From the NCBI GenBank assembly GCA_021604705.1, contig BQJM01000001.1, positions 72,887 through 136,886 of the forward strand: a stretch of DNA of 64,000 nt. Reading direction: 5' to 3'. The translations under genes were made by a program, and so were the position numbers. Under the pieces are notes generated by a model. It was given only the letters and a program-made list of their open reading frames with translations, was not told the origin of the DNA and searched no databases. Every line of letters begins with the position of its first letter. Position 1 is the first letter of the stretch. The stretch comes from a marine bacterium B5-7 (GTDB lineage Bacteria > Pseudomonadota > Gammaproteobacteria > BQJM01). Positions 1 to 17,444 of the stretch are shown one piece after another.

Positions 1-636
1 AGAAATGAAATATTGGCACATTTGAAGATGCCTTCGGGTGGTCGTTTTAGTGCGTTGATGCATGATTTGGAAATGTGTGGTTTTATTCGTAAGTATGTGC
101 CCGTTTTTTCAGGTGAATCGAGTAAATTGGTACGATATTGTATTGAAGATGCGTATTTACGTTTCTATTACAATTTTATTAAACCCATTGCTGGAGAGAT
201 AACGCGCGGGAAGTACAACAAAATACCCGTAACGGCGATAAACCAAAGCGCCTATCAGAAGTGGCTAGGTTTTGCTTTTGAAAGGTTTTGCCGGCGTTAT
301 ACAGATGTTATTGCCGATATACTAAAATTTTCTGCAGTGCAGTATCAGTCTGGCGCATATTACAACCGTTCGACATCACAGCAGGATTCGGGTTTTCAAA
401 TTGATTTATTGTATGACCGTGCCGATAACGTCTTGACCGTGTGTGAAATTAAATATTTAACAGGAAAGGTGCCGAAGAAGGTGATTAATGATTTTGAGAT
501 GAAATTAGCACATCTCAAAACAAAAAAAGAAAAAACCATACACAAAGTGTTGATCACTGCTGAGGGCGCAGAGCAGAGTGTCATTGAACAAGGGTATTTT
601 GATAGAATCCTTACTTTAGACGACTTCTTTTCTTAG
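1..636 (+). CDS. AAA family ATPase, C-terminal part (gene runs off the 5' window edge); paralog of 16002..17444
   Basis: Frame is open to base 1. The C-terminal ~200 aa align with the C-terminus of the 480-aa ATPase at 16002..17444 (LCGxxRKYxPVFSG..AYxRFYYxFI..VCEIKYL..IHKVLIT) at roughly 70% nucleotide identity. Confidence 0.7.
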   Translation, partial: RNEILAHLKMPSGGRFSALMHDLEMCGFIRKYVPVFSGESSKLVRYCIEDAYLRFYYNFIKPIAGEITRGKYNKIPVTAINQSAYQKWLGFAFERFCRRYTDVIADILKFSAVQYQSGAYYNRSTSQQDSGFQIDLLYDRADNVLTVCEIKYLTGKVPKKVINDFEMKLAHLKTKKEKTIHKVLITAEGAEQSVIEQGYFDRILTLDDFFS

Positions 637-736
637 CGTAGACCTTAAGTTGATGGCTTACATTTTTGGGTTTGATCTAAGCGGTTGCGGAGCAATACTG
701 CTTTTTCAGCTACGGCGATTCGACGTGGGGGCTCGG

Positions 737-1618
737 TTAAGTCGGTGATACACACGCTAAAAAATTAGAACATAGTTGTGATTGGTACTTGTCTTGATGG
801 GTCAGCTGATAAAAATGTCGCTTGAGTGTTAATTCGTCAACTTGGAGTTGGCAGATTTCTTTGGGATTTATTTTGCTATTCAACATTGTATGAGACAGGT
901 AAGCTAAACAATCACTGTTGGCAACATAATTTAAAATCGCTGATGAACTGTTTAATGTGATATCGACAGATAGTTCTTGATGTAGTGTTGTTGCACGTTC
1001 AAAGACTTCACGTGTGCCAGAGCCAGGTTCGCGTACTACCCATGAATATGCGAGCAAATCTTTCTTTTTAACCATTTTTTTCTTGCTGAGTGGATGGTTT
1101 CGACGACAAATAATCGCAAGAGAATCATCTTTCCAAATAGCCTGGTTAATAACAGATTCTTGGCAAACACCTTCAATAAAACCAATGTCGCATTGTAACG
1201 TTTTTACTTGATTAACAATCTCTTCTGTATTACCAATAACAAGGTTGAATGAAACATCAGGATAATTTTTTTTGAATCCAGCAAGATAAATGGGTAAAAC
1301 ATAATTGGCAATAGTCGTACTTGCCGCAATATTTAAGGTGCCGTTTAGTGGGAGACCGTCTGAAGAAAGTAATGACTCACATTCGCGCGCTTGATCTAAA
1401 AGGTTAATGGCTTTTGGCAATAGTGTGTGTCCATTAGCATTAAGCTGTAAGCGTTTACCGATACGATCAAACAGTGGAACACCTAAGTGCTGTTCGAGCT
1501 GCAATAAGGACATACTGGCTGCGGCTTGTGTGATGTGACAAGCCTCCGCACCGCGCGTTAGAGAATTCGCTTGCGCTGTTTTGACAAAGACTTGTAGCTG
1601 TTTGAGTGTGATGCGCAT
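737..1618 (-). CDS. LysR-family transcriptional regulator
   Basis: N-terminal HTH (LKQLQVFVKTAQANSLTRGAEACHITQAAASMSLLQLEQHLGVPLFDR) and ~290 aa length. Divergent to the oxidoreductase gene. Confidence 0.85.
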   Translation of the reverse strand: MRITLKQLQVFVKTAQANSLTRGAEACHITQAAASMSLLQLEQHLGVPLFDRIGKRLQLNANGHTLLPKAINLLDQARECESLLSSDGLPLNGTLNIAASTTIANYVLPIYLAGFKKNYPDVSFNLVIGNTEEIVNQVKTLQCDIGFIEGVCQESVINQAIWKDDSLAIICRRNHPLSKKKMVKKKDLLAYSWVVREPGSGTREVFERATTLHQELSVDITLNSSSAILNYVANSDCLAYLSHTMLNSKINPKEICQLQVDELTLKRHFYQLTHQDKYQSQLCSNFLACVSPT

Positions 1619-1727
1619 GGCCCCTCTGTATATAAGATTTGCTAATGCATTATATCAACATTATTAGTTTTACTTAAGCTACTTTGTCTGATAATCTGTT
1701 TATATGTTAAACAACCTCAGGGAGTAG

Positions 1728-15801: not shown

Positions 15802-15904
15802 GACCCACTTCCAGTAACGCTTAGAGGCTTCATCCTATCAGAGTTTCACCACGTTGGGAATAAAAAATACATTTAAACCTTTAACTCGGTTAGGCGTGAA
15901 TTAC

Positions 15905-15991
15905 TGCCACTAACCATTAAAAAACACCATTAGTGGCAAAAACCCTTTGGTTTTTTCTGCCACTAAGCTATAATTTAATACCTTAGTGGCA
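15905..15991 (+). promoter_or_regulatory. Two copies of the palindromic operator TGCCACTAA-N16-TTAGTGGCA flanking/overlapping a TATAAT -10 box, upstream of the ATPase gene
   Basis: Inverted repeats at 15905..15938 and 15958..15991. TATAAT at 15969..15974. RBS AGAGG at 15991..15995, 7 nt before the ATG. Confidence 0.6.
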
Positions 15992-16001
15992 GAGGTTAAC
16001 T

Positions 16002-17444
16002 ATGAAACCATTCCAACCCATTGAAAATAAAGAATTTATCGGCCGTTCGCGAGAGCGCAAACAACTGTGCAAAATCGGCCAATCAGATGAGGCTGAAATA
16101 GTCGTGCTGTATGGCCGTCGACGCGTTGGCAAAACAGAGTTGCTGGAACAGTGCTACAGAGAGAGAAATTTGCTCAAGTTTGAGGGGCTTGAGGGTCAAC
16201 CCAGCCAGGTGCAAATGGCCAGCGTGATGGATGATTTGGCGCGCTATACGGAACAACCTTTACTTTCCCAGGTGCAGGTACAAACCTGGAAAGATGTATT
16301 TCACCATATTTATACACACACGCAGTCTGGTACATGGACGATTTACTTCGAAGAGCTGCAATGGCTGGCAGAATATAAAGATGACTTTATCAGTATATTG
16401 AAATTTGCCTGGGACAATTGGTTTCGTCGTAACCCTAATTTACTGATGATTTTATGTGGTTCTTCTCCATCCTTTATGATTCAGCATGTGATGCACTCAC
16501 GCTCGCTTTACAATCGTTCGCAACATGAAATGCATTTGCAGCCGCTTAGTTTACAAGAAGCCGCTGCGTACATGGGAGATAAATATAGCAAACAAGATAT
16601 AATGGATGCGTATTTAACTGTGGGAGGAATTCCTCTTTACCTTAAGCAATTAAAACAAGATTCTTCTATTTGGCTAAGCCTCTGTCAAAGTGGTTTTGTG
16701 CAGGATGCATTTTTTAGCAAAGAGCATGCACGTATTTTTGTGAGCAGCATGAGCGATGATCCGAATTATAAAAAAGTTATTGCTTACTTAGCGAAGAAAC
16801 CGCATGCGACACGCGCAGATATTTTAAAACACCTTAAAATAAGCTCTGGCGGTGGTGTAACTGCCTTGCTTAATGATTTAGAATTATGTGGGTTGATGCG
16901 AAAATATGCCCCGGTATTTTCGGGGAAAGAGAGTCGACTTGCGCGTTATGCGATTGATGATCCCTATTTGCATTTTTATTACCAATTTATTGCGTCACAA
17001 CAAAAAGCGATCACCCAGGGAAAGTTTAATGATGATCCTACCATGGGCATCACGCATCAAAAATACCAGCAATGGTTGGGTTATGCCTTTGAACGTTTTT
17101 GTCAGCGTTATGCACATAGGATAGCAGAACGTTTAGGTTTTTCTGCTGTGCAATATGATTCAGGTGCTTATTATAATCGTAGTACCTCGAAAGATGATCC
17201 GGGTTATCAAATAGATCTCGTCTACGATCGTGCGGATAATGTGTTAACGGTGTGTGAAATTAAATATTTAAAAGACAAGGTGCCGAGCAAAGTGATTGTT
17301 GAGTTTGAAAAAAAATTAGCACGGCTCGATATGAAAAAAGAAAGGACTATCCACAAAGTGCTGATCACGATGAATGGTGCAGAGCAAAGCGTGATAAACG
17401 ATGGTTATTTCGATCGGATTCTTACCGTGGATGATTTTTTCTGA
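16002..17444 (+). CDS. AAA family ATPase (archaeal-type ATPase with C-terminal DUF234-like domain)
   Basis: Walker A GRRRVGKTE. Full-length paralog of the partial gene at 1..636. Confidence 0.8.
   Translation: MKPFQPIENKEFIGRSRERKQLCKIGQSDEAEIVVLYGRRRVGKTELLEQCYRERNLLKFEGLEGQPSQVQMASVMDDLARYTEQPLLSQVQVQTWKDVFHHIYTHTQSGTWTIYFEELQWLAEYKDDFISILKFAWDNWFRRNPNLLMILCGSSPSFMIQHVMHSRSLYNRSQHEMHLQPLSLQEAAAYMGDKYSKQDIMDAYLTVGGIPLYLKQLKQDSSIWLSLCQSGFVQDAFFSKEHARIFVSSMSDDPNYKKVIAYLAKKPHATRADILKHLKISSGGGVTALLNDLELCGLMRKYAPVFSGKESRLARYAIDDPYLHFYYQFIASQQKAITQGKFNDDPTMGITHQKYQQWLGYAFERFCQRYAHRIAERLGFSAVQYDSGAYYNRSTSKDDPGYQIDLVYDRADNVLTVCEIKYLKDKVPSKVIVEFEKKLARLDMKKERTIHKVLITMNGAEQSVINDGYFDRILTVDDFF

Follow-up and report, generated by a model that had tools for sequence, protein, structure and literature searches.

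The DNA analysed here is a 64-kb window (the whole stretch read) from the metagenome-assembled genome (MAG) 'marine bacterium B5-7', a gammaproteobacterium, and our subject is its interval 1..17444, in which an operon for a Trb-type type IV secretion system (T4SS) lies between genes for two related ATPases, ATPase1 and ATPase2. P0001 and P0002 (the latter is the ATPase1 product) are encoded on one 137,946-bp contig, and gene identities in the window come from Pfam, NCBIfam and PADLOC profile matches. ATPase1 enters the window with its 3' part (1..636, + strand; ATPase_2 plus DUF234 architecture of the PDC-S27 type, Pfam DUF234), the rest lying upstream; the full, intact gene of 481 aa was read at 1766..3211 of L002, a Logan contig whose overlap with the window is identical. 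ATPase2 (480 aa; Pfam ATPase_2, AAA_14 and DUF234; PADLOC PDC-S27) occupies 16002..17444 (+) and ends 48 nt before the conserved right anchor of the interval, tgt-yajC-secD-secF (17493..21829, +; Pfam), whose order matches that of a relative described below. An earlier sequence-only reading had placed this housekeeping cluster immediately after the second ATPase gene, as we find, and had proposed that the T4SS and its neighbours form an island inserted at, or carried between, the ATPase copies.

In E. coli K-12, queA-tgt-yajC-secD-secF form one contiguous cluster, in which queA adjoins tgt. The B5-7 locus departs from this arrangement: queA does not adjoin tgt in one orientation, just 3' remnants of it are present and the body of the gene is gone from the locus. 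One remnant (681..740, +; AVAEQYCFFSYGDSTWGLG followed by a stop codon), recovered by tblastn with the QueA of the relative, begins 45 nt past the ATPase1 stop codon in frame +3, spans 19 codons and lies 16.7 kb from tgt. The landmarks that bracket the interval are tgt and this remnant, not the ATPases. Relative to the canonical adjacency of queA and tgt, the DNA between the ATPase copies is accessory, a point on which the earlier reading was right, and 1..17444 is probably an expanded queA–tgt accessory hotspot built around a Trb-type T4SS, with variable cargo of the defence type on its margins. Among the ORFs of 1..17444, Pfam and NCBIfam revealed no integrase domain, no tRNA lies at the borders (the sole tRNA gene of the window lies at 42863), and a promoter and terminator scan gave counts at or below shuffle expectation. 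Literature searches on a queA/tgt hotspot and on 'marine bacterium B5-7' returned no match.

A Trb-type operon led by a GH18 gene

The operon lies on the minus strand and reads GH18-trbC-D-E-F-G-I-L-B. It opens with a secreted, chitinase-type GH18 gene (10662..12113; Pfam Glyco_hydro_18, 7.8e-48), followed by trbC (VirB2 pilin; 10350..10643; Pfam TrbC, 1.3e-21), trbD (VirB3; 10091..10345; Pfam VirB3), trbE (VirB4 ATPase; 7687..10173, with a true start probably near 10098; NCBIfam TrbE, 1165 bits against a cutoff of 1020), trbF (VirB8; 6980..7714; Pfam VirB8, NCBIfam TrbF over cutoff), trbG (VirB9; 6025..7023; Pfam CagX, NCBIfam TrbG_Ti over cutoff), trbI (VirB10; 4817..6028; Pfam TrbI, 7e-60), a divergent trbL (VirB6-like; 3732..4820; Pfam TrbL, 1.5e-8, NCBIfam TrbL_P under cutoff) and, as final gene, trbB (VirB11-type ATPase; 2792..3742; NCBIfam TrbB_P, 345.7 bits against a cutoff of 304.55). 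All eight Trb core components (TrbB, C, D, E, F, G, I and L) are thus present as intact open reading frames (ORFs), with TrbB, E, F and G over equivalog cutoffs and TrbL weak. The gene list that the sequence-only reading had given for the DNA between the ATPases stands by Pfam and NCBIfam and is refined: the T4SS is of the Trb (P-type) class, and the second gene of an operon that starts with an FRG-domain gene is now assigned as a cyclodipeptide synthase (CDPS).

By sequence, the GH18 protein carries a signal peptide, an intact DxxDxDxE motif and the invariant cysteines, and its nearest solved structures are chitinases (5GZU, 6BT9). It belongs to a rare subfamily with 40 database relatives, and its nearest named genomes are Coxiellaceae/Coxiellales MAGs (34–39% identity).

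No genome closer than ENA scaffold_31 of sample ERZ23497388 (loci L003 and L005; hereafter the relative) was found in the collections searched, and ~31 kb of this contig was read. Its Tgt is 82% identical to that of B5-7, the remaining Tgt matches being at most 79% and from unrelated Gammaproteobacteria. In the relative an intact queA (+) lies 14 kb from tgt, and between them come five small genes including DUF2000 and AbiEii, GH18-trbC-D-E-F-G-I-L (+), a 351-aa ORF (−) and an AAA_14/DUF4143 gene (−), ahead of tgt-yajC-secD-secF-ygfZ. The GH18-Trb T4SS is orthologous and co-located in the two genomes. GH18, in the equivalent position, is 57% identical (other members of its subfamily reach at most 48%) and is separated from trbC by 18 nt in B5-7 and 11 nt in the relative; TrbC/D/E/F/G/I/L are 79/64/61/54/46/58/39% identical, set against 82, 78, 79, 57 and 52% for Tgt, SecD, SecF, YajC and YgfZ, and synonymous divergence (dS) is saturated for the GH18-Trb set and the housekeeping set alike. 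That every T4SS ORF has stayed intact in B5-7 and in the relative, at a divergence that is saturating, implies purifying selection.

The surroundings of the operon are far less constant. The GH18-Trb block is inverted relative to tgt between the two genomes, TrbB has no match in the relative's loci, the LysR and oxidoreductase homologs of B5-7 are absent from the relative's interval, and the flanking cargo is wholly different. No ATPase_2/DUF234 gene lies within the ~31 kb read. The relative accordingly holds the T4SS in its queA–tgt interval without the ATPase pair, and the T4SS is therefore present independently of the ATPases. The sequence-only reading had named related genomes that keep this gene order with one ATPase copy as evidence against its own proposal, and a T4SS at the locus independently of the ATPases is that finding in spirit. 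The interval resembles known accessory and defence hotspots in its conserved flanks, queA and tgt, and in its cargo, AbiE and AAA_14 in the relative versus FRG, PDC-S27 and Phd in B5-7; unlike the usual hotspot, it also holds a conserved, apparently selected T4SS operon, and in B5-7 the anchor queA has been destroyed.

With the Trb (P-type, MPF_T) conjugative systems of IncP and Tn4371-like elements the operon shares homologs of TrbB, C, D, E, F, G, I and L, but its layout is its own. The canonical order in the conjugative plasmid pPNAP01 (Polaromonas) is traG-copG-trbB-C-D-E-J-L-F-G-I-DUF2274; in B5-7, in contrast, trbL follows trbI, trbB comes last and GH18 leads the operon, which is chromosomal and kept at one locus in two deeply diverged genomes. 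Homologs of TraG, TrbJ (VirB5), CopG and DUF2274 are absent from the 64-kb window and from the loci of the relative, TraG of pPNAP01 gave no tblastn match in the window, L002, L003 or L005, no integrase lies nearby, and the ORFs annotated across 1..51.5 kb include no relaxase domain (oriT was not searched for). TrbE is 61% identical to that of the relative and at most 53% to any of >5000 plasmid TrbE proteins, and TrbB is 46% identical to its pPNAP01 counterpart. Trb genes adjoined GH18 in none of 80 GTDB GH18 loci, nor in L007 or L008, and a literature search on T4SSs with GH18 found no match.

Several T4SSs work without a VirD4 coupling protein, among them Bordetella Ptl, Helicobacter ComB, Bartonella Trw and Brucella VirB. 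The B5-7 system is like these in its VirB2/3/4/6/8/9/10(/11) core and in having no coupling protein in its locus, and like Ptl in having a Sec-exported operon partner; it differs from them in being Trb-derived and in lacking toxin or DNA-uptake genes, and its coupling protein might lie elsewhere in the genome. We infer that the T4SS is domesticated, with no coupling protein in its locus and GH18 as its partner. GH18 could be a wall-remodelling enzyme that takes the place of a lytic transglycosylase of the VirB1 type, or else a substrate that leaves the periplasm in the manner of Ptl. The system would then have shed the parts specific to conjugation (nearby there is neither a TraG nor a TrbJ homolog, nor a relaxase domain) and acquired a GH18 of the chitinase type at the head of its operon, while staying intact at one chromosomal site across saturating divergence, in a lineage with eukaryote-like effector domains (Ank, F-box, Fic). 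Its conservation, the gain of GH18 and these effector domains together mark it as a candidate for a domesticated machine of secretion or adhesion, whose partner enzyme can be tested.

As a separate observation, ankyrin-repeat and F-box-like ORFs stand beside the locus in B5-7 and in the relative (L002 62-1490, upstream of ATPase1; L005 1926-3875; L003 17665-21098), suggesting a eukaryote-associated lifestyle.

The composition of the block bears on where it came from. GC content is 43–50% in the Trb and GH18 genes and 43–49% in core genes (window mean 44%), and 38–41% in ATPase1, LysR, CDPS, FRG, the orphan 394-aa ORF and ATPase2. Synonymous codon usage deviates from the core with a z of 2.9 for the T4SS (2.5% of resamples reach it), 3.9 for the cargo on its right and 0.2 for the cargo on its left, and part of the T4SS deviation may come from strand, the operon being opposite to most of the core genes used. 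Of the deviation in GC skew or codon usage across 640..16000 that the sequence-only reading had proposed looking for, codon usage deviates in the T4SS and in the cargo on its right, with strand bias as a confounder; the T4SS is core-like in GC, only the flanking cargo being lower, and GC skew is positive throughout.

The opposite orientations of the block in the two genomes would be explained if the GH18-Trb module were a mobile element, or the remnant of an integrative and conjugative element, that had targeted the queA–tgt interval independently in each lineage. The derivation of Trb genes from conjugative systems (53% to plasmid TrbE), the slight codon deviation and the complete unlikeness of the flanking cargo agree with such a history. 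We nevertheless judge it quite improbable: the block edges carry no integrase, relaxase, coupling protein or att repeat, GC is core-like and module divergence parallels that of core genes. Moreover, the two modules are mutual best matches, and the derived order that they have in common, in which GH18 leads, trbL follows trbI and trbJ is missing, is unique to them: neither the 80 GH18 loci nor canonical plasmids show it. Vertical inheritance of an old T4SS, inverted between the lineages, is the reading that we carry forward.

REP-like (repetitive extragenic palindrome-like) elements lie at the edges of this block. One sits at the trbL/trbB boundary (3701..3728, +; pattern search, repeat family D2), and two occupy the outer edge of the GH18-Trb block (12188..12290; repeat families D2, D4, I1 and I15 and pattern search). 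Inversion of the GH18-trbL block through the palindromes at 3701-3728 and 12197-12224 was considered and rejected: they are in direct orientation and would therefore delete, not invert, and the relative's loci have no such element. More widely, the genome-specific palindrome GTCAYCCCGnnnTTGAnnnGGGRTCTCC has 19 copies in the window against 0 expected and none in the relative's loci; sites are 3701-3728, 12197-12224, 20843-20870, 22440-22517, 22945-22972, 27765-28016, 37436-37610, 59284-59557 and 59989-60268, with four tandem copies at 52-nt spacing in 59284-59467.

ATPase1 and ATPase2 as diverged paralogs

ATPase1 and ATPase2 each combine a STAND-like NTPase, a winged helix-turn-helix part (DUF234) and a PD-(D/E)xK motif, and are of the PDC-S27 type. 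ATPase2 matches the PADLOC model for PDC-S27 (PDLC04984) with an E value of 8e-102, its residues 11-480 covering profile positions 3-473 of 474, and matches to PDC-S01 models are weak (2.5e-10). In an AlphaFold model of ATPase2 (16 homologs; pLDDT, the predicted local distance difference test score, of 89.8), residues ~1-370 fold like the archaeal AAA+ ATPases SSO1545 (2FNA) and PAB2304 (2QEN), and the fold also resembles the STAND/ORC-type NTPases NRC3, Sr35, CED-4 and Cdc6. The Walker A motif G38-R-R-R-x-G43-K44-T45, F116-E117-E118 and D405..E419 are invariant in 16 sequences. Both paralogs read ..IDL.YDRADNVLTVCEIKY.. at the C-terminal, PD-(D/E)xK-like motif D405..E419-x-K; for ATPase2 the nuclease call is at motif level, the fold matches covering residues ~1-370. 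Likeness to SSO1545/PAB2304 and to PDC-S27 comprises a full-length profile match, the fold, Walker A and the D..ExK motif, and by their match to PDC-S27 the two ATPases count as cargo. PDC-S27 is described as an ATPase fused to a PD-(D/E)xK member and as a 'guilt-by-embedding' defence candidate that awaits validation, published experimental validation being lacking (2026 survey, PMC12988326). A defence function is accordingly a candidate role for both ATPases, predicted from these matches.

In the window, the PDC-S27-type genes come as two diverged copies, each with operator-like palindromes of its own and one of them in a putative target-duplication cassette. Directly 5' of ATPase2, two operator-like palindromes (TGCCACTAA..TTAGTGGCA; 15905..15991, motif positions 15905/15930/15958/15983) stand 53 nt apart and end just before the start codon. 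ATPase1 has an equal layout in another sequence, CGGCCAA/TTGGCCG, at L002 1668/1697/1721/1750 (1668-1756), and the TGCCACTAA/TTAGTGGCA palindrome does not occur again in the window. These are putative private operators for the winged-helix part of each paralog, which would point to autoregulation and to operators that have diverged with their genes.

The sequence-only reading had described two direct-orientation copies with ~70% nucleotide identity over their shared part. This holds: both genes are on the + strand, blastn aligns 363 nt at 72.7% and 147 nt at 69.4% identity, and BLASTP over the in-window part finds 140 of 210 residues identical (67%). The nucleotide alignment it had called for, extended to full length, shows 66.6% nucleotide and 68% amino acid identity with one gap. 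Identity at third codon positions is ~43%, dS by the NG86 method is saturated and nonsynonymous divergence (dN) is 0.26. Per 40 codons, identity ranges from 47 to 82% with no near-identical tract, so that no trace of recent duplication or gene conversion is left, and the flanks share no homology, similarity stopping at the stop codon. ATPase1 and ATPase2 are mutual closest relatives among ~5.8 billion proteins (68% versus at most 57%) and therefore go back to one duplication in the B5-7 lineage, which, given synonymous saturation, is old. A recent duplication of the bracketing genes thus falls away. Dating the duplication against the species split by dS gave no result, dS being saturated for the paralogs and most orthologs.

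These data bear directly on the proposal that a single ATPase gene once stood between queA and tgt and that the island was inserted in or beside it, or that a segmental duplication carried the island between the copies. The copies do stand in direct orientation at both extremes of the interval and, across the whole database, each is the nearest relative of the other; their common two-palindrome architecture suggests that a duplicated unit included the promoter, and tandem duplication of a unit made of the queA 3' end and the ATPase would yield two copies of the queA end (queA'), as are found (see below). The proposal must, however, accommodate a relative that holds the T4SS in this interval with no ATPase_2/DUF234 gene in ~31 kb, which would need duplication before the split and two losses in the relative. 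It must further accommodate synonymous saturation without any high-identity tract and without homology past the stop codon or in the flanks, and a family locus elsewhere (L125) whose similar flank repeat is not followed by another ATPase copy. Insertion at the ATPases also sits poorly with a T4SS that is core-like in GC, with protein divergence close to that of the core, and with borders free of integrase, relaxase and tRNA. An empty site with a single ATPase and no island was not found: the only close relative has the T4SS and, in the ~31 kb read, no ATPase_2/DUF234 gene. We consider this origin of the interval unlikely. Paralogs that bracket an accessory block are not necessarily the scars of its insertion.

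The sequence-only reading had further described the ATPase family as multi-copy and associated with accessory DNA here. A third copy, 55% identical, lies on another contig of the MAG, giving three in total, and the PDC-S27 assignment agrees with an accessory link; the two additional members that had been named in the window do not belong. The gene at 63475..end is of the AAA_14/PDC-S01 kind, with no BLAST similarity to the pair and a relation at superfamily level, and the supposed remnant at 22212..22412 reaches −0.4 bits with a family profile of 120 sequences and has no PADLOC or Pfam match. That remnant falls in an 84-codon ORF fragment (22158-22409, +) ending ..IEIGGKNKGFSQIK..IPLWLFGFLY before its stop codon and unrelated to the ATPase family; the secF-ygfZ spacer that houses it measures ~700 nt in B5-7 versus 225 nt in the relative.

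AAA_14/DUF4143 (PDC-S01-like) genes also occur in the relative, directly 5' of tgt and after ygfZ (L003 8694-9818 and 15131-16291; L005 20046-21170); at equivalent junctions the two genomes carry different ATPase-nuclease candidates.

queA 3' ends and repeats flanking the ATPase family

The remnant at 681..740 matches the relative's QueA at its exact C-terminus (11 of 16 residues identical, 30.4 bits by tblastn), with a stop codon three codons after the match, in nearly the same place as in the relative's QueA, and it is also the top match of E. coli QueA. A score of 30.4 bits was reached by none of 100 shuffles of the 66.5-kb composite (maximum 27.7). A second, frameshifted copy of the queA 3' end (..EKQYRF / NYGDAMWI..) lies outside the window at L002 ~1604..1651, ~115 nt 5' of the ATPase1 start. 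The two queA' copies are the top two matches of the relative's queA 3' end in the composite at both nucleotide and protein level, agree with each other at 29 of 36 positions (score 22.5; 99th percentile of a mismatched-pair null, 19.0) and form a direct repeat of the last ~48 nt of queA that flanks ATPase1. With a queA' copy on either side in direct orientation, ATPase1 and its operators make up a repeat-bracketed unit of 1.6 kb.

All of this could be coincidence, the ATPases being ordinary multi-copy genes that happen to stand at both ends and the queA-like repeats chance similarities. The family is indeed common in many genomes, with >6000 database matches, and the upstream queA' match is weak on its own. 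Yet the downstream copy beats all 100 shuffles and agrees in C-terminus and stop position, the two best matches in 66.5 kb both fall in short intergenic regions flanking one gene, and repeats at other loci of the family are well above their null, so that we regard chance as very unlikely.

Those repeats come from a survey of 80 metagenomic family loci, of which 49 had sufficient flank; with the two window copies this made 51. For each, 500 nt upstream were aligned against 400 nt downstream, and the threshold was the 99th percentile of a mismatched-pair null. Flank duplications exceeded it in 7 of the 51 loci (6 of the other 49, plus ATPase1), in what is a small sample with its null drawn from mismatched flanks and without matched control genes. 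In L125 (1071-3118) the 3' end of an HSDR_N_2 gene is repeated over 172 nt on the flanks of the family gene, and an unrelated ORF comes next; in L162 (2306-4452) an intact tRNA-Met is followed by a 2-kb stretch with the ATPase as its sole ORF and then by a 49-nt copy of the tRNA 3' half; in L102, L108, L120 and L136 the repeats stand close against the ends of the family gene. No recombinase was revealed in the flank-repeated units.

These repeats suggest that members of the family may travel as small cassettes with target duplication. We tentatively extend this to a broader, though less than even, possibility: PDC-S27-type genes might be minimal single-gene cassettes (operator palindromes plus one ORF, 1.6-2 kb, recombinase-free) that enter host genes or tRNAs at their 3' ends, with duplication of 50-170 nt of the target, in which case one insertion would have destroyed queA here and the two edge copies would reflect repeated targeting of a hotspot, not island capture. 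Such cassettes would resemble integrative elements that use the 3' ends of tRNA or protein genes and leave att repeats, as the direct copies at ATPase1/queA, L162/tRNA-Met and L125/HSDR_N_2 indicate; they would differ in their size of 1.6-2 kb, in having one ATPase ORF and no recombinase and, in the window, in the loss of the target gene body as well. This would be a first hint that PDC-S27, a very common defence candidate awaiting validation, travels as a single-gene cassette with target duplication.

Taken together, we consider it likely that B5-7 is a host-associated gammaproteobacterium with an expanded queA–tgt interval, an old T4SS and ATPases that arrived as mobile cargo. On this account the operon GH18-trbC-D-E-F-G-I-L-B would be the old, vertically inherited and domesticated core of the interval, inverted between lineages, with cargo of fast turnover on both sides: LysR and oxidoreductase on the left, the orphan ORF, Phd, the FRG-CDPS operon and ATPase2 on the right. 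ATPase1 would have inserted into the queA 3' end with target duplication, the queA body being gone from the locus, and ATPase2 would be an old paralog placed directly 5' of tgt. The vertical inheritance with inversion and the ATPase1 insertion are inferred from the comparisons above.

Several points weigh against this account. There is a single reasonably close relative, deeply diverged (dS saturated), so that events in B5-7 after the split cannot be ordered. The dN between the paralogs (0.26) resembles that between orthologs of the two genomes (0.13-0.60), and the duplication could therefore predate the split, the relative having lost both copies. Behind the slight codon deviation of the T4SS there may be an effect of strand or some trace of a foreign origin. 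Of the queA' copies, the upstream one is short, frameshifted and outside the window (nucleotide E 0.017, amino acid E 0.039), ATPase2 has no flanking repeat (score 10.5), the 1.6-kb ATPase1 unit carries no recombinase, and the tandem duplication considered above gives an identical repeat. Finally, the negatives for traG, relaxase and an intact queA cover the loci read here, not the rest of the genome.

With the queA body gone from the locus, queA must either sit at another site in the genome or be dispensable because queuine, or a precursor of it, is salvaged. Loss of queA here with tgt kept is a small, testable point on queuosine salvage in host-associated bacteria.

Edge cargo and other features of the window

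To the left of the T4SS, a LysR-family regulator (737..1618, −; Pfam HTH_1 and LysR_substrate; GC 39.6%) is divergent from a flavin-dependent oxidoreductase/monooxygenase (1728..2780, +; Pfam Pyr_redox_3/Pyr_redox_2/Lys_Orn_oxgnase). To its right lie an orphan 394-aa ORF (12310..13494, −) that matches nothing in Pfam, NCBIfam or PADLOC, and an orphan Phd/YefM-type antitoxin (13669..13920, +; Pfam PhdYeFM_antitox, 2.2e-9) with no neighbouring toxin ORF in the ORF list. These are followed by a two-gene operon on the minus strand, in which an FRG-domain gene of the PDC-S15 type (14656..15801; Pfam FRG, 1.7e-22; PDC-S15, 1.8e-39) precedes by 8 nt a gene for a 228-aa protein (13961..14647).

The product of 13961..14647 is, on its sequence matches, a CDPS of the XYP type. 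It fell under the thresholds of the Pfam model and of NCBIfam TIGR04539; phmmer against the PDB aligned residues 19-223 to 9I5M/5MLQ (1.6e-19), 5OCD (1.3e-17) and 5MLP (3.4e-16), the last three of which we take to be the enzymes of Nocardia brasiliensis (5MLQ), Fluoribacter dumoffii (5OCD) and Rickettsiella grylli (5MLP, an XYP CDPS). In AlbC numbering, a catalytic Ser, a conserved Glu and a Y-P pair are the characteristic positions of CDPSs, and the alignment carries the corresponding signatures, ISLGN versus VSVGA (Ser), YFLEE versus YLLEE (LEE) and IIYPGK versus VIYPQR (Y-P). Full-length matches with E values of 1e-16 to 1e-19 and the Ser/LEE/Y-P motifs are its likeness to the XYP subfamily; it stands apart from it in its identity of at most 39% to any of 754 representative homologs and in its operon with an FRG-domain (PDC-S15) gene.

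A functional link through FRG-CDPS fusions was considered and rejected, since none of 10 long CDPS homologs carries FRG (nine are fused to PAS-histidine-kinase modules and one has no Pfam domain), and no paper linking FRG and CDPS was found. The fusions of CDPS-like and PAS-HisKA-HATPase parts, some with a receiver domain, are P0294, P0315, P0336, P0339, P0352, P0364, P0377, P0395 and P0400, and P0285 resembles a tandem CDPS.

Further along the window, a Fic-domain protein (41281-42828, +) is matched along its whole length by the defence candidate PDC-S24 (E 7.6e-189), and its gene adjoins tRNA-Thr (42863-42937, −), the only tRNA gene in the window. Between these features and the secF region, 31559-39175 holds four large ORFs, of 628, 453, 779 and 518 aa; none of them has a Pfam family or a meaningful PADLOC match, and they may encode effectors of a host-associated bacterium.

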